Shown here: positions 2,882 through 36,110 of the stretch, one piece after another
How the letters are laid out: each line of letters begins with the position of its first letter
Position numbering within the stretch: the stretch's first letter is position 1
Source of the DNA: Patescibacteria group bacterium
GTDB taxonomy: Bacteria > Patescibacteriota > Patescibacteriia > 2-01-FULL-39-33
Assembly: GCA_041649655.1 (NCBI GenBank)
Contig: JBAZMO010000001.1
Location: 173-64,172, forward strand
Direction of reading: 5' to 3'
Length of the DNA stretch: 64,000 bases
Notes under the pieces: generated by a model
Told to the model about the DNA's origin: nothing
Databases searched by the model: none
Seen by the model: only the letters and a program-made list of their open reading frames with translations
Program-made: the position numbers and the translations under genes

Positions 2882-4522
2882 ATGAATCTATTTTCCATAC
2901 CCCCATTAGCAAGTTCAGTGTTGTTTTTGCTTTTGGGGTTTTTTATTTTTTTAAGCAATAAGAAATCAAAGTTGAATCTGACGTTTTTTTTGGTCTGTCT
3001 GTCGACTTTTTGGTGGCAATTCAGTTGGTTTGTTTTGTTCAATACTGAGAATAGAAATTTAGTCGATATTATCGTCAAGGTTGGCTATATCGGCATAATT
3101 TTCATTCCGGTATTTTTTTATCATTTTTTTGTCTTATTTCTGGAAGATAATAATAAACTCGATAAGGTTTTGTTGAAAGCTGCTTATTTAATATCATTTA
3201 TTTTTCAATTGTGCCTAGTCGCCGGCAGTTGCTTCGTGAGCGGTTCTTATTTGTATTTTTTTGGTTATTACCCCCAAGCCGGCTTTGTGCATTTGATTTA
3301 CTTGTTATTTTTAGCTCTGATTCTGTTCAGGATAATTTATATTTTATCTTCTTACCTGAAGAAAAACGTTTCCAATAAGAATCTAAAGTATCATCAAATA
3401 AAATATTTGTTGCCCAGCATGGTTTTCTATGCCTCGGCCAGCGTCGATTTCAGCGCTAATTATGGCCTGGGGATTTATCCTTTTGGTTTTGTTTTTATTG
3501 TTATTTTTTCGTTAATTATAGCTTATTCTATTATTAAGTTGCAGTTACTAGATGCTAAGGCGATTGCCACTGAGATATTTGCTGTGTTTTTAACCTTAGT
3601 TTCTTTTGTCGAAGTATTTTCAGCCGGCTCTACTACGGCATTGATTTATCGCTTGATAATTTTTCTTATCACCCTGATCTTCGCCATCCTCCTGATCCGT
3701 TCCGTCTTGCAGGAAGTCCGCCGGCGCGAGGAGATGGAAGTCCTTAATAAGAAACTGAGCAAGGTTTCCAAGGAATTGGCTTCGGCCAACAAAGAACTGC
3801 GGCGCTTGGACGAATCCAAGTCGGAATTCATGTCGATTTCTTCCCATCAATTGCGCACACCTCTGACGATTATCAAGGGCTATTCATCGATGCTATTGGA
3901 AGGCAATTTCGGCAAATTATCCGCTCCGGTCAAAGACAGCATCAATAAGATTTTCATTTCCACCGAACGTCTGATCAATCTGGTCGAGAGCTTGCTTAAT
4001 ATCTCCCGCATTGAAGCCGGCCGGATCGACTTCAAGATCGAGCCGGTCGATTTGAGCGAGGTGACCAAATTGATGGTTAATGATTTCCAAGCCAAAGCTA
4101 AAGCGAAGAAACTAAAATTGGAATTCGTCGAGGATAAGAGCGTCCCCAAGGTGGCCGCTGACGCGCAAAAGATTAAAGACATTGTTTCCAACTTGATTGA
4201 CAACTCGATCAAGTATACCAAGCAGGGCGAAATCATGATCAACCTCCATCAGGAAGGCCAATCAGTGGTTTTTGCCTCCCAGGATACCGGCATCGGCATT
4301 GATCCGGAGGATTTGTCCCGGTTATTCAATAAATTCACTCGAGGCAAGGATTCGGCCAAGGTTAATACGGAGGGCACGGGCTTGGGCTTGTATTACGCCC
4401 GAGTTTTGATTGAGAACATGGGTGGCCGCATCTGGGTAGAATCGCCGGGCAAGAATCAGGGCAGCAAGTTTTCTTTCTCTTTGCCGTTGGCGGATAAGAA
4501 AATGGCGAAGAAAATTAGGTAG
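2882..4522 (+). CDS. membrane sensor histidine kinase
   Basis: Multi-TM N-terminal half. Coiled-coil linker. HisKA H-box SHQLRTPLT. HATPase_c N, G1 and G2 boxes (NLIDNSIKYT, DTGIGI, GTGLGL). Confidence 0.85.
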   Translation: MNLFSIPPLASSVLFLLLGFFIFLSNKKSKLNLTFFLVCLSTFWWQFSWFVLFNTENRNLVDIIVKVGYIGIIFIPVFFYHFFVLFLEDNNKLDKVLLKAAYLISFIFQLCLVAGSCFVSGSYLYFFGYYPQAGFVHLIYLLFLALILFRIIYILSSYLKKNVSNKNLKYHQIKYLLPSMVFYASASVDFSANYGLGIYPFGFVFIVIFSLIIAYSIIKLQLLDAKAIATEIFAVFLTLVSFVEVFSAGSTTALIYRLIIFLITLIFAILLIRSVLQEVRRREEMEVLNKKLSKVSKELASANKELRRLDESKSEFMSISSHQLRTPLTIIKGYSSMLLEGNFGKLSAPVKDSINKIFISTERLINLVESLLNISRIEAGRIDFKIEPVDLSEVTKLMVNDFQAKAKAKKLKLEFVEDKSVPKVAADAQKIKDIVSNLIDNSIKYTKQGEIMINLHQEGQSVVFASQDTGIGIDPEDLSRLFNKFTRGKDSAKVNTEGTGLGLYYARVLIENMGGRIWVESPGKNQGSKFSFSLPLADKKMAKKIR

Positions 4523-14968: not shown

Positions 14969-16151
14969 TTATTGGGGATCGCAAACGGCGATTTTCACCG
15001 TTATTTTTCTGGCGGCGGTTTTTATTTCCATTTGCCGCAAAAGCGATATTCGCATCCTGTCCAAAGAGACCTCCAATGAGTTGCGCGGCTTGGCGATTTT
15101 AGGGATAATTTTCACTCATCTGACTTACGGCAAATTTTATGGCACGGAATTCTTGTTCCCCTTGGGCATTTGGGGCGGCATCGCCGTCAATTTATTTTTT
15201 TTCTTATCCGGCTACGGCTTAGCCGCTTCCGCGATTTATCATCCTAAAACATTGCTGGAGTTCTATCGCAAACGCGTAGCTAAGATCTACCTGCCACTCT
15301 GGCTTTTTTTATTTTTTGTCTTGTTGGCTGATGCTTATTTATTGAATCGTTTTTATCCGTTGGCCGAGGTTATCGCCGCTTTTTTCGGTTTTTTTCCGAG
15401 AGCCGATCTTTTTGTTTCCATTAATTCGCCTTTGTGGTTTTTAACTCCGTTGTTGTTTTATTATTTGATTTTTCCTCTCATTTTCCATCAGCGTCATCCG
15501 CGTTGGTCAGTATTGGCTATTTTTATCGTTAGTTTTTCGGCTTACTGGCCCGGTTGGCCGGTAACGGAGCAGATTTGGGAGTATTATCAAACGCATTGGC
15601 TGGCTTTTCCGTTAGGCGTGTTGCTGGCGGTGTTGACGGTCTCGCCGCAAGCGGTTTGCGCCGCGTGCGTAAGAAGCAAGCGTTGCCGATCTTATCGGTG
15701 GCTGCTTTCGGCTTGGACTAAAGACACGGAGGCCGCCGCTAAACCGTTAGCTCGCCTGATTAAAAATTTTCGATCATTGCCGTCGGTCTGGCATTGGCTG
15801 ATTTTGGTTCTTTTAACCGGTTTGGCTTGGCAGACGGCCTATCATTCCGGAGTGGGCCAGGGCTTGGAAATTGAGCAAGCTTATGCCTTAGTCACGATGG
15901 CTTGTCTGATTCTGCTGTTTGCGTTTAAGAAAACCAAATTCCGCTTACTGGAAATAATCGGTGTTTATTCTTTTGAAATTTATCTGTGGCATTGGCCGCT
16001 TTTTGGCCGTTACGGTTTTTTGTATGATTATCTGCCGCCCTGGCTGGCAACCGTTTTGTATCTGCCGCTTATACTGGGTTTGGCTTACTTTTTTAATCAT
16101 TTGGCGAAATTTGCGGTCGATCGGATTATGGCAAAAAAATGCTTTAAATGA
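14952..16151 (+). CDS. acyltransferase family 3 (membrane O-acyltransferase)
   Basis: About 10 TM helices; AT3-family profile; overlaps the SGNH gene by 17 nt. Confidence 0.7.
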   Translation: MEILNNYWGSQTAIFTVIFLAAVFISICRKSDIRILSKETSNELRGLAILGIIFTHLTYGKFYGTEFLFPLGIWGGIAVNLFFFLSGYGLAASAIYHPKTLLEFYRKRVAKIYLPLWLFLFFVLLADAYLLNRFYPLAEVIAAFFGFFPRADLFVSINSPLWFLTPLLFYYLIFPLIFHQRHPRWSVLAIFIVSFSAYWPGWPVTEQIWEYYQTHWLAFPLGVLLAVLTVSPQAVCAACVRSKRCRSYRWLLSAWTKDTEAAAKPLARLIKNFRSLPSVWHWLILVLLTGLAWQTAYHSGVGQGLEIEQAYALVTMACLILLFAFKKTKFRLLEIIGVYSFEIYLWHWPLFGRYGFLYDYLPPWLATVLYLPLILGLAYFFNHLAKFAVDRIMAKKCFK

Positions 16152-16209
16152 ATTGATTGGAAGTTTTGTCAATCAGGCCGTTTCATGTTAAAATACAAGA
16201 GTAAAAACT

Positions 16210-17118
16210 ATGGATTTTAACGAACATCAGCAATTAAATCAGATGATCGAGCCGGTTGCCGATTATCCCGCTTATCCGGCCGGCTCGCCTCTTTTTAGAA
16301 AAAATAAGAACTGGCTGAAATGGCTGTCAGTGATGGCGGCAATCTTGGCGATTTTGGGCGCGTTGGTTTTTCTATTCGTAGTTTATTCGGAAGTCGCGGC
16401 GCGCGATGCCAAGCTTAAGGGGCTTTTGAAGTCGGCGCAGCAGGGAACTTCCGGCGCGATTATCGAGAGCCAGCTGCTTGGCAGTTTGATGAACGGCCGG
16501 GATGAGGCCAGTTCGACTATTGCTGCATCAGCAACGACAACCACTGGCGACCCGTTGTTCGGAGCATCGGCCGGTTCGCAAGACAGCAACCGCCGGTTGG
16601 CCGAGAAAAGCGGCCGGCCGCAATTAGGCAATGCTTCTTCCGGCTTGGTCATAGTGGAATTCGCCGATTTCAATTGCTCCGTTTGTTTGGAGGAATTTCC
16701 GATCATTCGAGCGATTTCTAATAAGTATGCTCAAGATATTTTATTTATTTTTCGCAACTATCCGGTGATTGATCAGAATTCGCTGATGCTGGCGCAAGCC
16801 GGATTGTGCGCCGAGGAGCAAGAAAAATTCTGGCCGTTTCATGATCGTCTTTTCTCGAGTCAGGGCCGGATTTCCAGCTTGGCTGATTTTCAGAAAATCG
16901 CTGTCATGTCCGGCTTGGATTGGAATCGACTTCAAGATTGCATCAATACGGAAAAATATCGGCCGCAAGTAATGGAAGATATGCAGGACGCTTTGGATTT
17001 GGGCGCGCGCGGCACGCCGACTTTCTTTGTCAACGGTAGCAAGCTGGACGGTCCGGTCAGCGAGAGCGTTTGGGAGGAAATAATCGCCAAATATAAGGAA
17101 TTAACCAAACAGCAATAA
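16210..17118 (+). CDS. DsbA-like thiol:disulfide oxidoreductase, membrane-anchored
   Basis: N-terminal TM; thioredoxin-fold CxxC (FADFNCSVCLEEFP). Confidence 0.75.
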   Translation: MDFNEHQQLNQMIEPVADYPAYPAGSPLFRKNKNWLKWLSVMAAILAILGALVFLFVVYSEVAARDAKLKGLLKSAQQGTSGAIIESQLLGSLMNGRDEASSTIAASATTTTGDPLFGASAGSQDSNRRLAEKSGRPQLGNASSGLVIVEFADFNCSVCLEEFPIIRAISNKYAQDILFIFRNYPVIDQNSLMLAQAGLCAEEQEKFWPFHDRLFSSQGRISSLADFQKIAVMSGLDWNRLQDCINTEKYRPQVMEDMQDALDLGARGTPTFFVNGSKLDGPVSESVWEEIIAKYKELTKQQ

Positions 17119-23953: not shown

Positions 23954-26857
23954 ATGACATACAAGGAGTTCTTGAATGATGGAGGAGAGAAGAAGTGGCA
24001 GGATCAATGGCTGAACACAAAAATTGATCGAGCCGATGACTTCAGTTCCAAGCCCAAGAAATATGTGCTGGATATGTTCCCGTATCCGTCCGGCGCGGGC
24101 TTGCATGTCGGCCATCCGGAGGGTTATGCGGCGACTGATATTTATTCTCGTTATTGGCGGCTGAAGGGATTCAATGTCCTGCATCCGATGGGCTGGGACG
24201 CTTTCGGTTTGCCGGCGGAAAATTACGCCATCAAAACCGGCACCCAGCCGCAATTGACCACTGATAATAATGTCGCCACTTTTAAACGCCAAATTCAGTC
24301 GCTTGGCTTTTCTTATGATTGGGATCGGGAAATCAATACCACTGATCCGAAATATTATAAATGGACGCAATGGATTTTTTTGCAATTGTTCAAAAAAGGC
24401 CTGGCTTATGAGGCGACCGTGCCGATTAATTTTTGTCCGTCATGTTTGACTGGTTTGGCTAATGAAGAAGTCAAAGACGGCAAATGCGATCGCTGCGGCA
24501 CGTCGGTCGAGAAGAAGGATTTGCGCCAATGGATGTTGAAGATTACCGCTTATGCCGACAGGTTGTTGGAAGGGGTTGATAAGCTGGATTGGCCGGAGTC
24601 GATCAAGGCCCTGCAGCGGAATTGGATCGGCCGATCGGAGGGAGCAACGGTGAAATTTCCAATTTCCAATTTCCAATTTCCAATTGAGGTTTATACTACT
24701 CGCCCCGACACTCTTTTTGGCGCGACCTATATGGTTTTGTCCCCTGAACATAATCTTTTGGATGAATTGAAACCTAGAATTACTAATTGGGAAGAGGTTC
24801 AGGATTATATCGCTAAAGCCAAGAATAAATCCGATCTGGAACGGACAGAACTTAATAAGGATAAGACCGGCGTTGAGCTGAAGGGCATTAAGGCGATTAA
24901 TCCGGTCAACGGCCAGGAGATCCCGATCTGGATTTCCGATTATGTGCTGGCGTCTTACGGCACCGGCGCGATCATGGCGGTGCCAGCTCATGATGAGCGT
25001 GATTTTGAATTCGCGAAGAAGTTCGGTTTGCCGATCATCGAGGTGATTATTCCGGAAAGGATTGATAAAAGGAATCCGCCCGTAGCCGGCAAAGAAAAGG
25101 TTGAGAGAAAAAATGTCCAAGTCATTGTTCGCAATCCTCGGACGGGAAAAATTCTTTGCCTTCATTCCCATAAATACGGCTGGGTCACTTTTCCAATGGG
25201 CGGCGTCGGGACTGATGAAGATCTGTTGGCTGCCGCTAAGCGCGAGGTGATAGAAGAAACCGGTTATCGGAATTTAATTAATGGCGAAGTGCTCGGCGGG
25301 CAAGTTCGCGCTGAATATTTCGCTAATCATAAGGATGTTAATCGAGTTTCTTTCACTAACTTAGTTCGATTTGATTTGGCTGATGAAGAACAGATCGGAA
25401 TTTCTGAGGAGGAAAAAATAGCCGAGAATGAAATCCTTTGGAAAAATCCGGAAGAATTAACGTTGGATTTCATGGTTCATGCGGAAATGGATGTTTGGCT
25501 GGAACGGATTAAAAAAGGCGATATCGCTTATACGGACGTCGATAATGGTGTCATGATCAATTCGGAATTTTTGAACGGCCTTGTGCCGGCTGAAGCAATC
25601 GGCAAGATGATCGACTGGCTGGAAGAAAAAGGTGTCGGCCATAAAGCGATCAATTACAAATTGCGCGATTGGGTTTTTTCTCGCCAAAGATATTGGGGCG
25701 AACCGATCCCGCTGGTGCACTGCGAGAAGTGCGGTCCGCCAGCTGGCGGATGTGCCATTCCGCTAAATGAAAAGGATTTGCCATTAACACTGCCCCAAGT
25801 GGAAAAATACGAGCCGACCGGCACCGGCGAATCGCCGCTCGCGACAATCGATGAGTGGGTCAATACGATTTGCCCGAAATGCGGCGGTCCGGCTAAGCGC
25901 GAGACCAACACAATGCCGCAATGGGCAGGCAGTTCTTGGTATTGGCTCAGGTATATTGATCCGCATAATGATGAGGCCTTTGCCGATCAGGATAAATTGA
26001 AATACTGGCTGCCGGTCGATTTGTATTTGGGCGGAGCTGAGCATGCGGTTTTGCATTTGCTTTATGCTCGTTTTTGGAATATGGTTTTGTTTGATCTGGG
26101 CGTTGTGCCGCAAGAAGAGCCGTTTGCTAAGTTGATTAATCAGGGTTTGATTCTGGGCGAAGACGGCGAGAAGATGTCGAAGTCGCGCGGCAATGTGGTC
26201 AATCCCGATGAAATCGTCAAGGACTTCGGCGCCGACACTTTCCGTTTATATGAGATGTTTATGGGGCCATTGGAAGCGATGAAGCCCTGGAGCACCAAGA
26301 ATATTCTGGGCGTCCATCGGTTTTTGAATAGGGTTTGGGAGTTAGTTCCCCTCCTTTCCAGGGAGGGGCTAGGGGAGGTTTCGGAAGGGAATGACAAGGC
26401 AGAATTAGAAATTTTATTTAATAAGACCATTAAAAAAGTCGGCGAGGATATTGAGGCGATGAGTTATAATACGGCTATTTCAGCGCTGATGGTTCTGGTC
26501 AATAAATTCCAGTCGGCTGGTGGTATTAATCAAGAGCAATTAGAAAAATTTTTAATCATCCTGTCGCCGTTCGCGCCGCATTTGGCAGAAGAATTGTGGG
26601 GAAAGTTAGGCCAGGTGGAAAGTATTTTTAAAGAAAAGTGGCCGGAGTATGATGCAAGCAAAGTCATTGACACGGAAATTGAAATGCCGGTGCAGATCAA
26701 TGGCAAAGTACGGGCTAAATTGAAATTGCCGGCCAATATTAGTGAAACTGAGGCGAAAGCAGCTGCTCTTAGTGATGAGAATGTCAAAAAATATCTGGTT
26801 GGCGAACCAAAGAAGATTATTTTCATTAAAGGCAAGTTGATCAGTATCGTGGTTTAG
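23954..26857 (+). CDS. leuS: leucyl-tRNA synthetase carrying an internal Nudix hydrolase domain
   Basis: [20 protein letters not shown] motif, CP1 editing domain, KMSKSRGN, C-terminal KGKLISIVV. About 130 extra aa between the post-editing [19 protein letters not shown] block and [12 protein letters not shown] contain a full Nudix fold. Confidence 0.95.
24654..24684 (+). repeat. (AATTTCC)n heptamer tandem repeat inside leuS, encoding FPISNFQFP
   Basis: AAATTTCCAATTTCCAATTTCCAATTTCCAA, identical to the ileS copy. Confidence 0.8.
25115..25525 (+). other. Nudix hydrolase domain embedded in LeuRS (Nudix box at about 25198..25266)
   Basis: [51 protein letters not shown] is a perfect GX5EX7REUXEEXGU Nudix box, with the preceding beta-strands typical of the fold. 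E. coli LeuRS has only about 45 aa in the corresponding segment. Confidence 0.75.
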
Positions 26858-29684: not shown

Positions 29685-29706
29685 GTGATGGTAAAAGTGC
29701 GGGTTC

Positions 29707-29904
29707 TTAGTATTCCCAGCCCCGTCCGATTAGGCCGCGCTGGGCATACCAGGCCTTCAGGGGCAGGTAGGGGAAGCGTCGCTCAAACTCGGCTCGGGAC
29801 AACCCCTCGACCAATCCTTGCCGCTTAACGCCTTCGTGGCGACGACGCAGGTGGTCGCGGGATCGATTGAGCCGGCGGGTTTCAGCTCGTCGGAGCTTAC
29901 TCAT
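29707..29904 (-). CDS. small basic protein (65 aa), third gene of a coupled operon
   Basis: MSKLRRAETRRLNRSRDHLRRRHEGVKRQGL...; its ATG overlaps the upstream stop as ATGA; GC about 60%. Confidence 0.45.
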   Translation of the reverse strand: MSKLRRAETRRLNRSRDHLRRRHEGVKRQGLVEGLSRAEFERRFPYLPLKAWYAQRGLIGRGWEY

Positions 29905-30062
29905 GAGTCGCCTTTCTGCCAAGCCCGCTTGGCTTGTTTGCGGTCATAGCCGCGTTTGCCTCTTGGCGAAGAGTGGACTTTTTCCGTCTGCCGCGGGAAA
30001 GCGCGACGGACTTTCTTGTCCAACTCGCGCAAGTTTATTGTACCGATATGGATGGTGCTCAT
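29901..30062 (-). CDS. small basic protein (53 aa), second gene of a coupled operon
   Basis: MSTIHIGTINLRELDKKVRRAFPRQTEKVHSSPRGKRGYDRKQAKRAWQKGDS; RBS GGAGAGAA; ATGA start/stop overlap with both neighbours. Confidence 0.45.
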   Translation of the reverse strand: MSTIHIGTINLRELDKKVRRAFPRQTEKVHSSPRGKRGYDRKQAKRAWQKGDS

Positions 30063-30349
30063 GTCGTTCTCTCCTTTTGCTCGAGATCCTGTTTGATCCC
30101 GAGCAGTTGCGGACACTGCTTGACCCAGAAGTCCTGCACTTGCCGTTCGGTCCGCTTGGCGGTCCATTCGGCTTTCAGCTCCGGACTCGGGATAAGCGCG
30201 GCCTTCAGTTCGGCCGGGGCGGAAGCGATCAGTTGGCCGCCGCAGGGCTTATGCACCCTGGCGACCTTGTCGTCGGCCGTCCGTACTAGCCACCGCGCGC
30301 CGTTGTTGCCGACTGTGCCGCAAAACTCGCATGTGTGTTTCTCGCTCAT
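30059..30349 (-). CDS. small zinc-ribbon-like protein (96 aa), first gene of a coupled operon
   Basis: MSEKHTCEFCG...HKPCGG cysteine pairs. Confidence 0.5.
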   Translation of the reverse strand: MSEKHTCEFCGTVGNNGARWLVRTADDKVARVHKPCGGQLIASAPAELKAALIPSPELKAEWTAKRTERQVQDFWVKQCPQLLGIKQDLEQKERTT

Positions 30350-30398
30350 GATTCTCTTCTCCTTGTGGTTGGGGTTGCAGTTTGAATGTCCGCTTCAA

Positions 30399-30417
30399 TG
30401 AACAAGTAATTTGTTCA
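30399..30417. promoter_or_regulatory. palindromic operator-like site upstream of the GC-rich operon
   Basis: TGAACAA-gtaat-TTGTTCA perfect 7-5-7 inverted repeat, about 50 nt upstream of the first gene. Confidence 0.35.
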
Positions 30418-31419
30418 CTCAAGTGGACTGCCGATTTTTTCATTTTTAGGGAAATCGGCGGAAACCTTTTTGACAGTGGAGCGGGATTTAAGCTGGCTTT
30501 TTTGCCAACCGGCCGAGCTAGTTCAGGATCGTTCCCGATACCGCCAGGCCTCTAATATCCCCGCTCCTGGGCTCGTCCAAGCCCGCCTCTTTTTCGAGGT
30601 ATAAGGCGATTTTTTCGCCCTCAGTCGAGATGTCCGACCGCGTGTTGCCGCTGTCACGGCTCACAACCGACTTTCTTGCAGGCGTTCTCGCCAGACAAGG
30701 GACTAGGTATAGTCGCAGTGGGAACCAACGCCTCTTCAGCGTTGCTTCCCGGGCGTGCTAGCACCCGTTCAGCCGTCCTCTAGCAAGGATGGTTGTCTCT
30801 CATGCAAGTTGCCCAGATTTCCGCTCGGGTCTCGCATAAGATTAGACGCGCTCCATCTGTGCGTTCCCGCAGAGATGAAGTGTTGGCAGCCAAGCCAAAC
30901 GTGCCCGGATGCCTGCGCGCATCTGCACCGGAATGTTTTCCAATCGTTTGAAAAATAATCCGGCGCAGACGCGCATCATTAGTAATCCATTATAAGGTGC
31001 CAGTCGAGATATATTACTTTTAACTTTGACCTGTTATCAATTACTTTTTTTTGGCACGACAAGTGTTGTTGCGAGTTAACACTATTAACGTCAATTAATC
31101 TTTCCGACAGCCGGGAAAAGTGGATTTTTTTCACCCCAACCGCTAAGGGCAGGGCAGAGTCCGCGAGGGACTGATCCGCTGTTTTCCAGTTAAACCGGGT
31201 TTTAGCCGGTTTTTTTGGCTAAATCGCCGTTAGCGGGCGATCGGCCAAATTCAGCTTTCAACTCTGGGTTTGTACTTGTCGGAAAGTTTTGACATTGGTT
31301 TTACCAGGTTGATAAATCAGTATATCACACGGAAATTATTTTGTCAATAGTCATTATAATTAATTATTATTTTTGTTATTATTTTAGCTAAATTTAAACA
31401 AAATAAATCATAATAATTC

Positions 31420-31437
31420 TGTCAATCATAATTGACA
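31420..31437. promoter_or_regulatory. inverted repeat TGTCAAT-cata-ATTGACA
   Basis: Perfect 7-4-7 palindrome in an AT-rich intergenic region. Confidence 0.3.
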
Positions 31438-31454
31438 ATTTGTTATTTTCCGAC

Positions 31455-31476
31455 CATGATTCATGATTCATGATTC
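31455..31476 (+). repeat. (CATGATT)3 heptamer tandem repeat
   Basis: CATGATTCATGATTCATGATTC; related TGAATCATGA motifs recur at 38874..38903. Confidence 0.7.
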
Positions 31477-31524
31477 TAAATTCATAATTCTAGCCCGCCT
31501 GTGGATAACTTTTGTTTATGCCTC

Positions 31525-31553
31525 TTGACAAAATTTATTGGGTATGCTATACT
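31525..31553 (+). promoter_or_regulatory. near-consensus sigma70 promoter
   Basis: TTGACA - 17 nt - TATACT with TGn-like upstream GC (GGTATGCTATACT). Confidence 0.6.
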
Positions 31554-31618
31554 GTTATATTGAGTCAAAAGCCGCATTGGGCGGCTGGCGATCAATGGAC
31601 ATTCAAAGGGAGAACGAA

Positions 31619-31816
31619 ATGTCGAAAAAAGCAAAATACGTGGTTGCAGTTAAAGATATTTCCACGGGGAAGATTCTTCCTGGCAAAGTTCTGGGGAGTT
31701 TTCGAGCCGAGGAATTTGCTCGACGCGATTTTTCAAAACTCGCTCAACGCGAATGCGGTTGGGCTCGCACCTATCATTGCGGTATTTTTTTTGAGGGTAA
31801 AATTGTTAGTTTCTAG
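31619..31816 (+). CDS. small hypothetical protein (66 aa)
   Basis: RBS AAAGGGAGA 6 nt upstream of the ATG; MSKKAKYVVAVKDISTGKILPGKVLGSFRAEEFARRDFSKLAQRECGWARTYHCGIFFEGKIVSF. Confidence 0.45.
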   Translation: MSKKAKYVVAVKDISTGKILPGKVLGSFRAEEFARRDFSKLAQRECGWARTYHCGIFFEGKIVSF

Positions 31817-33020: not shown

Positions 33021-34385
33021 ATGGAGAAAAAATTTAAGCATTTGGAAAAAAATTCGGATAAAAATGAGACGGCCGAAGAACAAACCAGGGTTGAAGAATT
33101 ACTGGAGAAGCTTTTTGATTCCGAGTCGATTAATAAGGTCAATGAGGGCCATCACGGCGCTATATTCGAGCTTGATTTCAGCGGGTTGTCCGAATCGGAA
33201 AAACAAGAATTTTGTCGGCATTTTCAAATACCGATTAGTGATGCCGGCGAGGTGGCCGTCAAGATGTTGAAATTGTACCAGCCCAGGGAAGCGGAAAAAG
33301 AATTCCTTGCTCAGGAAAAGGCGGTTCAAGCCGTTAATGGCCGGGAAGAGTTAAGGGCGAATGTCGGCATACCGGAATGTTATTTCGGCGGCGAGATTTC
33401 TATTTCCGGCCGGCCGTTGAAAGATAAATTGGAAGCCGCTGGCATTAATGTCGCTACTGACCATTTTGGAGTGATTATGATGGATTTTGTCAAAGGCGAG
33501 GACTTGGGCATTTATTGCTATAAGCAATTCATTAAGGCCCATTTTGATCGATTCAAGGAGTTGGCGGGCATTGAGAAAGAAGTCGCTGCCGAGGAATATG
33601 ATTTATATTTGAACGGTGAATCAATTGATAATTTGATTTTGTTTTGTCATCGTCTTCTGGGCGTACGAGCTAAGTATCATTACCTTGATGATTCGTTTGA
33701 AGCCAGGCAGGAACGCAGCGATATAGCGAATAAACTGTTGGCTGGCATCGAAAATAAGGGGCTGTTTGACCGAAGCAAAATTAAGGATTTGCGGGCGGCC
33801 ATCAGCGCTATGCATGAGCAAGGAGTTTTTCATCGCGATTTGCATTGGCGCAATATTGTGCAAGATAAGGATGGAAAGTTGTTTATCGTTGATTTTGGTT
33901 CGGCAAAAATTGTCGAGGCGGGGGTTGGTGAAATGTCGAGTATTTACCAGTCGGAAGACGGCCGTTTGATGGATAAGGACGAAGCAATTTTGAGTTTTCT
34001 TCAGCGATTATCCGTTACTGCTGAGGAGGCGGATAAAATCAAGATTGAGCGGAATTTGGCAATGGCTGTCAAGGTGAAAAATATCGCTAATCAGGATGTT
34101 TTTAAGAGCCCTAAAGAAAGAAAAATCAATAATGCTTGGATGATTCTTCAGGAGAGTGTCGGCGCCGGCTTGAAATTAGGCCAGGTCTTGAGAGAGTTCA
34201 GTAATAACTTGGGAGAATATGCAGATAGCGATCTTTCATTCGATTATCAAATTTCTGCCTTATTGCTATTGGCGGAAAATGGTTATCGGGAAAAAGTGAA
34301 GGAATTCTGCCTGGAAAAGATTTTAGATGATAAAATCAGTCCTGTGTTTTTATCAAAGTTGGTTTCATTGGAACAATCTTTGTAA
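33021..34385 (+). CDS. atypical protein-kinase-like (RIO/Kdo-kinase-like) protein
   Basis: Catalytic loop HRDLHWRNIV and metal-binding IVDFGSAK (DFG) motifs; start 9 nt after the regulator gene. Confidence 0.6.
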   Translation: MEKKFKHLEKNSDKNETAEEQTRVEELLEKLFDSESINKVNEGHHGAIFELDFSGLSESEKQEFCRHFQIPISDAGEVAVKMLKLYQPREAEKEFLAQEKAVQAVNGREELRANVGIPECYFGGEISISGRPLKDKLEAAGINVATDHFGVIMMDFVKGEDLGIYCYKQFIKAHFDRFKELAGIEKEVAAEEYDLYLNGESIDNLILFCHRLLGVRAKYHYLDDSFEARQERSDIANKLLAGIENKGLFDRSKIKDLRAAISAMHEQGVFHRDLHWRNIVQDKDGKLFIVDFGSAKIVEAGVGEMSSIYQSEDGRLMDKDEAILSFLQRLSVTAEEADKIKIERNLAMAVKVKNIANQDVFKSPKERKINNAWMILQESVGAGLKLGQVLREFSNNLGEYADSDLSFDYQISALLLLAENGYREKVKEFCLEKILDDKISPVFLSKLVSLEQSL

Positions 34386-34403
34386 TTTTTATTATTAACA
34401 AAA

Positions 34404-34436
34404 ACAGTCCGTTACTAGGCGGACTGTTTTTGTTTT
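34404..34436. terminator. bidirectional rho-independent terminator
   Basis: CAGTCCG-ttactagg-CGGACTG hairpin flanked by A-run and T-run. Confidence 0.6.
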
Positions 34437-34439
34437 GCC

Positions 34440-36110
34440 TTATTTCCCCAAGATAATCAGGACATCGCTCGCGGCTTTGAGGCCGGCGGGCGGCGGAGCG
34501 GCGCTGACGCCGGAAAGTATCTGGAGCTCGGAAACCGTCAATGAGTATTTGCCGCCGGAAAAGTCGTAGATCTTGGTCGTCGTATAACCCTTGGTCGCGG
34601 CATTGCCGGTTTTGGTCACCGTAAAACCCTTAGCTCTTAGCCGGCTGGCTTCTTTGGCCGCCCAGCCCTCGATCGTCGTGCCGTTTTGGATTTCTAATTT
34701 TGCGCCTTCGTTCTGATACGAGTAGTCCTTGGGCGCCGCCGGTTCCAGAGTGTTAAGATCGGTCGGGGCTTCATTGCCGAAAGGAATAGTTTCAGCCGGC
34801 TTGGCGGCGATTGCCGGCTCGGTTGTTTTGGTGGTGGTCGCCTTGGTTGAAGTTGGTTGGTCTTTGAATTCGGCCCACTTGGTATAATCGATTGCCGGCG
34901 TTGACGTTCCTAAGGTAAAGATATTCTGCCAGATGAAGCCGATCTTGTCGTAATTGCCGCCGTAGGGCAGCAGCACATAAGCATCGTTGACGATTTGATC
35001 GTACAATAACGGCGTTTGGCCGTTAACCAAGCTGTAATTGATCGGATCAGTCGCTTCGATATTCTTAAAAATCTTGGCTAGTTTCAAAATTTCCCACATT
35101 TCCAAGTCGGTCGAGACGTTCTCTTTGTAAGCGGTGAACAAACTGGAGATTTTGGCCGGATCAAGGATGAAGTTGTATTGGCTGATTTTTTCTTTTAGCG
35201 CAATCAGGACTTTTTGCTGGCGTTTGGAACGGGCGAAATCCGAACCCTCGGCGCCTAAGGCGTGCCGGGATCGGGAATATTTCAAGGCGGTCGCGCCGTC
35301 GAAATGCTGCCAGCCCTTCTTGATATTCAGGGTCTCGTAACGCGATTCGATCGGCCAGTCGTTTTCTCTGCCGTTGATCGGATAGGAGTAATCGATTAAA
35401 TTATTATCGACATAAACGTCAATCCCGCCGAATTCATCAATCAGTTTTTCAAAGCCGTCGAAATCAATGACGGCGTAATAATCAATTTCGACGCCGAGCA
35501 GTTCCCCGATGAATTTACCGGTTTCCTCGCCGCCCGATCCGGGTGATTTTTTTTCGGCGTAAGCGTTGACAGCGTTGATTTTGGTCCAGCCGATGCCGGC
35601 GACTTTGACGTACATGTCTCGGGGCAGGGAGAGCATGGCTAATTGCCCGGTCGATGGCTTGTAGGTGGCGAGAATCATCGTATCGGCCAGATTGCCGGCT
35701 TCATGTTCTTTGCCCCCGATTCCCATCAGTAAGAAATTAATCCGGTCATTGGCCTCGCCTTGAAGCGGCCGGTCGCTGGAAACAATCAAGCTGCCGAGTT
35801 GGCCTAAAAAATTAAGATTAGTGAAATTTTTAATCAGATTCTCATTGGAAAAGATGATTGAAGAGGAAAAGACGGCGAAAGCGATGACGGCGACAATGGC
35901 AATGCTGGCCAGCAATCTTTTAATCTTGCCCCTTTTTTTCTTTTTAAAAATCGGCCGCACTCCTGGTGAAGATTGCAGTGAGAGTTGATTGGCGGCAGCT
36001 GAACTTGGCGCCGGTGAGGCCGGTGGCGGAGAATGGCGTTCAGAATTGACAGAATTGAATTTTTCTGTTTTTTGGTCGGAGATGAAGTTTATTTTTACCG
36101 GTTCGGTCAT
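34440..36110 (-). CDS. LytR-CpsA-Psr (LCP) family cell-envelope phosphotransferase
   Basis: N-terminal TM; LCP core LLMGIGGKEHEAGNLADTMILATY...LSLPRD; C-terminal LytR_C-like domain. Confidence 0.85.
   Translation of the reverse strand: MTEPVKINFISDQKTEKFNSVNSERHSPPPASPAPSSAAANQLSLQSSPGVRPIFKKKKRGKIKRLLASIAIVAVIAFAVFSSSIIFSNENLIKNFTNLNFLGQLGSLIVSSDRPLQGEANDRINFLLMGIGGKEHEAGNLADTMILATYKPSTGQLAMLSLPRDMYVKVAGIGWTKINAVNAYAEKKSPGSGGEETGKFIGELLGVEIDYYAVIDFDGFEKLIDEFGGIDVYVDNNLIDYSYPINGRENDWPIESRYETLNIKKGWQHFDGATALKYSRSRHALGAEGSDFARSKRQQKVLIALKEKISQYNFILDPAKISSLFTAYKENVSTDLEMWEILKLAKIFKNIEATDPINYSLVNGQTPLLYDQIVNDAYVLLPYGGNYDKIGFIWQNIFTLGTSTPAIDYTKWAEFKDQPTSTKATTTKTTEPAIAAKPAETIPFGNEAPTDLNTLEPAAPKDYSYQNEGAKLEIQNGTTIEGWAAKEASRLRAKGFTVTKTGNAATKGYTTTKIYDFSGGKYSLTVSELQILSGVSAAPPPAGLKAASDVLIILGK

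Follow-up and report, generated by a model that had tools for sequence, protein, structure and literature searches.

A block without genes ahead of a small-gene operon

In the 64-kb window analysed here (the window being the whole stretch of DNA, to which all coordinates refer unless a related locus is named), three tiny minus-strand genes, designated g96, g52 and g64, are translationally coupled through overlapping stop and start codons and are followed by an open reading frame (ORF) of 566 aa. Ahead of g96, and downstream of a conserved promoter-like site at 31347–31319, lies the subject of this report, a block of 937 nt (~31311 to ~30375, minus strand) that appears to specify a large structured RNA. 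An earlier note, made by a reader who saw the sequence alone, had proposed a structured non-coding RNA of about 570 nt at 30420–30995 (576 nt; here called the region). Those limits proved too narrow, as the unit extends over ~940 nt and the note had covered the downstream two-thirds of it. The coordinates of the individual features are collected in Table 1.

The region contains no credible ORF, in agreement with the note: the longest start-to-stop frames, both on the plus strand, are 67 aa (GTG start) and 57 aa (TTG start), there is no Shine-Dalgarno sequence before either of them, and gene callers placed zero genes in the region in two independent assemblies. The stretch between the promoter and the region is likewise without an ORF. 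Pfam searches with the ten longest six-frame fragments gave zero matches, and tblastn comparisons using all stop-to-stop ORFs of at least 40 aa from 10 related loci returned only frame-independent matches that mirror the nucleotide conservation, so that neither intact genes of relatives nor known protein families show the translated similarity expected of a pseudogene. The 143- to 147-aa genes found just upstream of g96 in the related loci L003 and L004 have no similarity to the region. Judged by sequence comparison, the extra genes that stand between the RNA and g96 in L003, L004 and L007 are inserted cassettes without homology to the region, which argues that the region is not a pseudogene; an intact gene in relatives, which the note had named as one of the findings that would overturn its proposal, was not encountered.

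Two database genes do overlap the homologous stretch in relatives, over the conserved motif and block 2 described below: one of 103 aa in L007 (positions 432–743 of that locus; NCBI/ENA) and one of 62 aa in L004 (8920–9108; JGI). Because neither their length nor their frame is conserved in other lineages, they are probably false calls over the RNA. We also considered a leader peptide starting at a conserved AUG at 30922 (MRAGIRA...), within the 29-nt motif of Table 1, and rejected it as the cause of the conservation: the ORFs opened by this AUG range from 9 to 96 codons among lineages and have unrelated downstream sequences, no Shine-Dalgarno sequence precedes it, and its equivalent is missing in L029 and opens an ORF of only 4 codons in L011.

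With a GC content of 54.2% as compared with a window mean of 47.1%, the region is GC-enriched, if less so than the ~58% given in the note, which also overstated matters in calling the genome AT-rich. The unusual density of stems remarked on there is borne out by the predicted minimum free energy (MFE), which is –238.4 kcal/mol on the plus strand (z = –6.9) and –262.4 kcal/mol on the minus strand (z = –10.7), and 100 dinucleotide shuffles produced no fold as good. When the 64 kb was cut into 332 overlapping windows of 576 nt and MFE was regressed on GC content, the region ranked 1/332 on both strands and lay at –5.5 standard deviations (sd) on the minus strand. For the full 937 nt of 31311–30375 (minus strand), the folding z-score is –11.0, and the matching gaps in L004, L007, L010, L011 and L013 share this strong structure (z of approximately –6 to –9 by an approximate shuffle, as compared with 0 to –3 for coding controls). 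Elsewhere in the window, the next-best GC-corrected stretches on the plus strand are 16129–16704 (–3.4 sd) and 33985–34560 (–3.1 sd), neither of which has an Rfam match at the gathering threshold.

Conservation, strand and covarying helices

With its homologues, g96 makes up a Patescibacteria family of 52 proteins (cluster representatives), all unannotated, and the contigs that carry them fall into about nine distinct lineages bearing the same gene island: L001 (the window itself), L002 = L009, L003, L004 = L006 = L008, L005, L007, L010, L011 and L029. More distant loci (L012 and L013–16) were also recovered, and several of the relative contigs end before reaching the RNA. The window belongs to a Patescibacteria metagenome-assembled genome, and the related loci carry the names Patescibacteria and Candidatus Buchananbacteria. 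Motif scans of genome and metagenome collections yielded at least four loci, three of them duplicates of known contigs and one, L007, new; the pattern of the 29-nt motif listed in Table 1 hit only Patescibacteria contigs among the matches listed.

The closest relative, L002, is 90.8% identical to the window across 2.1 kb, but the identity is very uneven, being 97–99% per 100-nt bin over 30400–31299 (with the exception of 93.9% in 31000–31099) and 72–95% in the flanking genes. Over 30375–31311, 29 of 937 sites differ (3.1%), as compared with 33 of 185 four-fold degenerate sites (17.8%) in g96, g52, g64 and the first part of the 566-aa ORF; that is, the block changes ~6 times more slowly than nearby neutral sites, and it does so without a coding signature. 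Fifteen of the 29 substitutions fall at positions that are unpaired in the MFE fold, though such positions make up only 34% of the total, and eight more retain pairing via G-U intermediates; a 1-nt indel is tolerated at 30722. The comparison shows purifying selection acting on the nucleotide sequence of the block. Between the conserved anchors, helices vary in length and sequence among lineages, and L007 and L011 hold 300–400 nt of extra hairpins.

These figures bear directly on the possibility that the stretch is a decayed gene, or the remnant of a mobile element or phage, whose hairpins are incidental. The GC content of 54–66% across 29700–30950, above that of the surroundings, could be read in this way, as could the orphan status of the neighbouring proteins and the ORFs annotated over the homologous stretch in L007 and L004. 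However, a divergence of ~3% next to 18% at the neutral sites of neighbouring genes is the reverse of decay, neither relatives' ORFs nor Pfam families resemble the stretch at the protein level, the called ORFs vary in length and frame, and BLAST searches of phage and plasmid collections and three motif scans of viral contigs returned nothing. We consider this explanation largely refuted and very improbable; nothing found points to the mobile-element RNA remnant that the earlier note had entertained.

Several observations distinguish the two strands. The minus strand folds 24 kcal/mol better, despite the plus strand being T-richer; G-U pairs are numerous in the recurring unit (RU) at the 3′ end of the block, which points to the minus strand; all covariance-model matches lie on the gene-sense strand; and the promoter is oriented toward the minus-strand block and genes. 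By these measures, the minus strand is the sense strand. Transcription would start near 31311. Prediction places no intrinsic terminator on the minus strand ahead of g96, so the RNA probably forms the 5′ portion of the operon transcript. The evidence for transcription is the conserved promoter-like site in the right orientation, which is 92% identical to positions 1–90 of L007 and is also present in L003, L004, L005, L010 and L011, i.e., in every lineage with coverage.

Table 1. Features of the RNA block and the downstream genes, listed in the direction of the minus strand
Feature	Position	Strand	Basis or remark
Sigma-70-type promoter TTGACA-17-TATACT, extended –10 TG	31319–31347	–	11/12 matches in scan
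5′ domain closed by long-range stem P1	31097–31289	–	Inverted repeat; kept in 8 lineages
Linker ACACUUGUCGUGCC joining the 5′ domain to hairpin H	31053–31066	–	UUGUCGU invariant in 8 lineages
Long hairpin H: 19 pairs, small internal loop, 8 pairs	30914–30978	–	Alignment A6
Near-invariant motif GGUGYAGAUGCGCGCAGGCRUCCGRGYAC	30901–30929	–	3′ arm of H and flank beyond
Block 2: GAGACAACC, then hairpins UCCUU-GCUA-GAGGA and GGGUG-CUAGCA-CGCCC	30743–30807	–	Covariance model R1, alignment A8
Middle hairpins with single-stranded motifs CCUAGUCC (30707–30700) and GACAGCGGCAACAC	30642–30709	–	Same motif order in L007, L011
3′ three-way junction: hairpin Ha, closing helix Hb, two inner hairpins	30478–30584	–	Predicted folds
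RU: hairpin-1 and ~40-nt palindrome, just before ribosome-binding site	30388–30459	–	Alignment A11
g96, 96 aa, zinc ribbon and two long helices	30349–30059	–	ORF; AF2 model, pLDDT 91.5
g52, 52 aa, pI 11.3	30062–29904	–	ORF, ATGA overlap
g64, 64 aa, pI 11.7	29904–29710	–	ORF, ATGA overlap

Read from 5′ to 3′, the predicted structure begins with a domain closed by stem P1, in which AAACUUUCCGACA (31289–31277) pairs with UGUCGGAAAGAUU (31109–31097) across an insert of 167 nt in the window and of ~230 nt of unrelated sequence in L007; in L011, three pairs of this stem are changed on both sides (U-A to C-G, C-G to U-A and A-U to U-G). Inside the domain, the motifs UAACUGGAAAACAGCGG and AAAUCCACU are conserved, and a variable inner hairpin takes the form GUCC/GGAC in the window, GCUC/GAGC in L007, L004 and L003 and GCCC/GGGC in L005 (alignment A5). 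In hairpin H, 80.7% of the cells in alignment A6 (seven lineages) are paired, as compared with 30–47% when the partners are slid; six pairs are changed on both sides, and the 26 G-U as against 10 A-C pairs favour the minus strand. With two-fold variation at three positions, the 29-nt motif that takes in the 3′ arm of H is otherwise almost the same in the window, L002, L003, L004, L005 and L007, although the 5′ arm varies; read from the sequence, it could also form an alternative hairpin, GAUGC-GCGCAG-GCAUC, that would compete with H. One of the two stems quoted in the earlier note, CCGGATGCCTGCGCGCATCTGCACCGG, does exist and lies in this long hairpin and motif (30929–30901).

The two loops of block 2, GCUA and UAGC, are mutually complementary and could pair with each other. 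Covariance model R1, built from the window, L002 and L007, finds the block on the same strand and correspondingly placed in L007, L005 (1e-6), L003 (2e-5) and L004 (8e-4), with E-values from 7e-30 to 8e-4; the first hairpin is longer by 19–26 nt in L005, L003 and L004. In alignment A8, 98.6% of the cells are paired versus 34–44% with slid partners, 6 of the 15 pairs are changed on both sides, and no shuffle among 500 reaches this level. Farther downstream, hairpin Ha (GGGCUUGGACGAGCCC, 30584–30569), the other stem already quoted in the earlier note (GGGCTCGTCCAAGCCC), is conserved. The closing helix Hb, formed in the window by GGAGCGGG (30567–30560) and CCCGCUCC (30485–30478), is kept with different sequences in L011 (GGGUGAG/CUCACCU), L029 (GGGCGAGG/CCUCGCCU) and L007 (GGAG..GGCU/AGCC..CUCC), with one clean U-A to C-G exchange between L011 and L029; Hb was compared by hand, as MAFFT and RNAalifold misaligned the 3′ end of L011.

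The RU consists of hairpin-1 (GCCGAUUU...AAAUCGGC, 30459–30430) and a palindrome (30428–30388). It is present once in the window and in 12 copies among nine lineages, where it stands ahead of several different small genes, as in L003, L004, L007, L010, L011 and L029. In alignment A11, 84.6% of the cells are paired (28–53% when slid), both partners have changed in eight pairs, and none of 500 shuffles scores as high; hairpin-1 occurs in the variants GCCGA/UCGGC, GAUGA/UCAUC and GGUGA/UCACC.

Compensatory changes beyond shuffled and slid controls maintain the pairing of P1, H, block 2 and the RU, in alignments of 5–12 related sequences, two of which (A8 and, in part, A6) had been fitted to, or obtained from, the structure being tested; covariation is seen in Hb as well. 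The earlier note had suggested an Rfam search together with a covariation analysis; the former found no match, and the latter, at this shallow depth, gave support in every helix that can be aligned across lineages, in keeping with the note's suggestion of a structured non-coding RNA of some other large class.

Inverted repeats of this kind could in principle act as DNA, in duplex or cruciform form, by binding proteins as operators do or by marking sites of recombination or cassette joining, rather than as RNA. Consistent with this, both strands fold far better than shuffles, the RU precedes different small genes amid cassette-like differences in gene order, and its palindrome has one conserved A-C mismatch on the sense strand that is G-U on the other strand. 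On the other hand, helices are kept via G-U pairs that would be mismatches on the opposite strand and in duplex-symmetric sites, and both the stem that spans ~170–230 nt and the three-way junction with its compensatory changes are typical of RNA. Nor does the locus resemble a repetitive extragenic palindrome, a miniature inverted-repeat transposable element or the end of an insertion sequence: block 2 and the RU are each present in one copy only in the 64 kb, and no recombinase, integrase or transposase was found near the region. We regard a DNA-level element as improbable.

Known RNAs, the downstream genes and possible functions

Rfam 15 gave 0 matches at the gathering threshold across the whole window, the families covered being RNase P RNA, transfer-messenger RNA (tmRNA), signal recognition particle RNA, 6S RNA, group I and II introns, riboswitches, OLE, GOLLD, ROOL, HEARO, raiA and others. 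At E ≤ 10, only sub-threshold hairpin matches of the microRNA type were obtained for 29900–31700 and likewise for L007, L029 and L011, and ARAGORN found no tRNA and no tmRNA. RNase P RNA and tmRNA, both rejected by eye in the earlier note, are among the families without a match. A by-eye candidate for domain V of a group II intron, GAGCCGUGACAGCGGC, was rejected, as it has no GNRA loop and no Rfam intron match. The literature searched, the coverage of which is incomplete enough that an earlier description is possible, describes no such RNA in Patescibacteria.

The closest functional analogy, as opposed to a family match, is OLE RNA (RF01071) with its adjacent partner genes. OLE ("ornate, large, extremophilic"), the subject of two reports (PMC9723947, PMC10898510), is large (~600 nt or more) and intricate, has conserved loop and junction nucleotides and is located within an operon beside small partner-protein genes with which it is co-transcribed. 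The present block does not match the OLE model, occurs in Patescibacteria rather than Firmicutes and has no oapA, oapB or oapC among its neighbours; a partnership of the RNA with the neighbouring proteins, like that of OLE with the Oap proteins, is hypothetical. GOLLD, ROOL, HEARO, raiA and other large bacterial RNAs, whose functions are undefined or were defined only recently, are comparable in that they are of the same size class, are modular with variable peripheral helices, have a narrow phylogenetic range and were discovered by comparative genomics, but the associations of GOLLD and ROOL with phages and tRNAs and of HEARO with IscB are absent here, and no Rfam match connects the block to any of them.

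A run of hairpins in the genome of a Candidate Phyla Radiation (CPR) bacterium also brings to mind a guide-RNA array, whether CRISPR-like or of the stem-loop TIGR type, since stem-loop TIGR arrays, which string one hairpin after another, are reported from CPR bacteria, Patescibacteria included (PMC12045711). Here, by contrast, there is no direct or tandem repeat periodicity, the hairpins are very unequal in size and are combined with long-range pairing, tandem units of two 8–12-nt spacers with box C/D motifs on their flanks are absent, and the sequence is conserved between strains instead of varying as spacers do. Among the neighbouring genes tested, no Nop domain, the mark of a Tas protein, was detected (at the sensitivity of Pfam), there was no Cas protein and PADLOC returned no defence-protein match. 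Of the explanations considered in this report, a guide array is the one we find hardest to credit.

The proteins encoded downstream are themselves orphans: no Pfam, PHROG or PADLOC family was found for g96, g52, g64 or the 566-aa ORF. The g96 family has an invariant VHKPCG and a CxxC motif, and sequence and fold searches of the Protein Data Bank (PDB) with g96 gave no significant match, the best weak ones including eL24/Rlp24-type and other zinc-binding folds. Homologues of the three genes occur in the same islands of L002, L003, L004, L007, L010 and L011 in variable order, with g96 always present and g52 and g64 usually so. The position of the RNA relative to these genes also varies. In L010, a module consisting of H and the core sits between two RUs downstream of the g96 homologue, and in L003, L004 and L007 other genes separate the RNA from g96. 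The 5′ domain alone is tied to the promoter, which it follows directly in every case. A gene for a TrmB-family regulator lies alongside in the window, L004, L011 and L013–16.

Other features of the islands may be noted here. The placement of the RU before different small genes, together with gene order and content that vary among lineages, gives the island a cassette-like appearance. Small type II secretion or PilC (T2SSF) repeat-like proteins are inserted between or after the RNA domains in L003 (1039–1335), L007 (1350–2078) and L010 (1101–1430). Further ORF-free gaps of 600–700 nt lie downstream of g96 homologues in L007 (3150–3830) and L012 (2253–2844), and the former contains another long hairpin (3317–3403) with only sub-threshold microRNA-like Rfam matches.

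Taken together, and on computational evidence throughout, the block combines an excess of structure, compensatory changes, a strand preference, a lack of coding signal and linkage to a promoter and to small basic proteins. We favour, with moderate confidence, the reading that 30420–30995 is the core of an undescribed, large, modular structured RNA of Buchananbacteria-like Patescibacteria that would derive from the operon transcript. The promoter would start a minus-strand transcript whose first ~940 nt are non-coding and would fold into the 5′ domain, the long hairpin with the 29-nt motif, the two-hairpin block, the three-way junction and the recurring hairpin pair; with no recognisable terminator in its way, the transcript would then run on into the three tiny coupled genes. 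With lower confidence, we suggest that the RNA may work together with the zinc-ribbon and highly basic mini-proteins encoded beside it, as a ribonucleoprotein (RNP) scaffold, and would be more than an on/off leader of the first gene, and that the flanking long hairpins may be processing or stability boundaries. The long perfect helices on either side of the core (H and the RU palindrome) would plausibly be sites of double-strand-specific processing.

The main competitor is a purely cis-acting 5′ leader with no function of its own, by which the operon of small genes would be controlled at the level of read-through (e.g., through processive antitermination), stability or translation, perhaps in concert with the neighbouring TrmB-family regulator. 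This explanation draws on the location of the block after a conserved promoter and before the first gene, without an intervening terminator, on the constant placement of the 5′ domain directly after the promoter, on RU hairpins immediately ahead of ribosome-binding sites, on the alternative hairpin of the invariant motif that may compete with H and on the recurrent adjacency of the TrmB gene. Known processive-antitermination leaders such as the EAR element and the put RNA of phage HK022 resemble the block in having a structured 5′ end directly after the promoter and no terminator before the genes. They measure ~70–130 nt; at 940–1300 nt, the multi-domain block is several-fold larger than known cis-regulators, and part of it can sit in mid-operon, as in L010.

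Several considerations lead us to prefer a functional RNA over such a leader. Its build of 0.94–1.3 kb in multiple domains is far outside the range of known leaders, constraint on the RNA exceeds that on the downstream proteins that it would be supposed to regulate, the position of the module varies, only the 5′ domain being promoter-tied, and the island always carries g96 and usually the basic g52 and g64. The location of the module downstream of the g96 homologue in L010, in particular, argues against a simple leader for g96, and the genes that intervene before g96 in L003, L004 and L007 likewise count against one. We therefore rate the leader explanation as rather unlikely, though it deserves to be taken seriously, and favour an RNP or processing role over a plain cis-regulatory one with low confidence.

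A number of points weigh against the favoured reading. The absence of a terminator between the RNA and the genes fits a cis-acting leader equally well, and three sites with a stem followed by a T-run lie on the plus strand. The transcription start, the transcript ends and any processing are predicted from the sequence, and the covariation statistics are indicative, below the grade of an R-scape analysis. To these may be added the sense-strand A-C mismatch in the RU palindrome. RNA binding by g96, g52 and g64 is putative, and g96 itself has no significant PDB match.

A more specific version of the RNP reading is possible, and we put it forward tentatively: the block may represent a Patescibacteria-specific RNA class of ~1 kb that is excised at the flanking long hairpins and assembled with the zinc-ribbon and the two basic proteins into a dedicated RNP, with the GCUA and UAGC loops providing tertiary or intermolecular contacts. 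If so, it would rank with the largest bacterial RNAs outside the ribosome, and no large machine of non-coding RNA and protein would have been described in the CPR before it. Large folded bacterial RNAs beyond ribosomal RNA, RNase P RNA, tmRNA and introns are rare, and OLE, GOLLD, ROOL and HEARO each opened a new line of biology. Given that the tiny genomes of Patescibacteria have little spare DNA, ~1 kb of non-coding sequence that is more constrained than the neighbouring proteins points to an important function. The locus offers a testable candidate: its promoter, domains and conserved motifs are defined, and three proteins are candidate partners.

Neighbouring sequence features

On the far side of the minus-strand promoter, an AT-rich spacer at 31360–31560 (24–36% GC) separates it from a second near-consensus promoter, on the plus strand, at 31525–31553. 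The spacer contains a perfect DnaA-box sequence, TGTGGATAA, at 31500–31508, and the same box is found in the equivalent spacer of L011 (~2201–2209); a tandem repeat of three CATGATT units lies at 31455–31476. The spacer is unlikely to be a replication origin (oriC), because the cumulative GC skew shows no switch there. Farther away, the leucyl-tRNA synthetase encoded at 23954–26857 on the plus strand (967 aa) has a NUDIX-domain match (PF00293) inserted between the synthetase domains, and the same arrangement is seen in its L004 ortholog.

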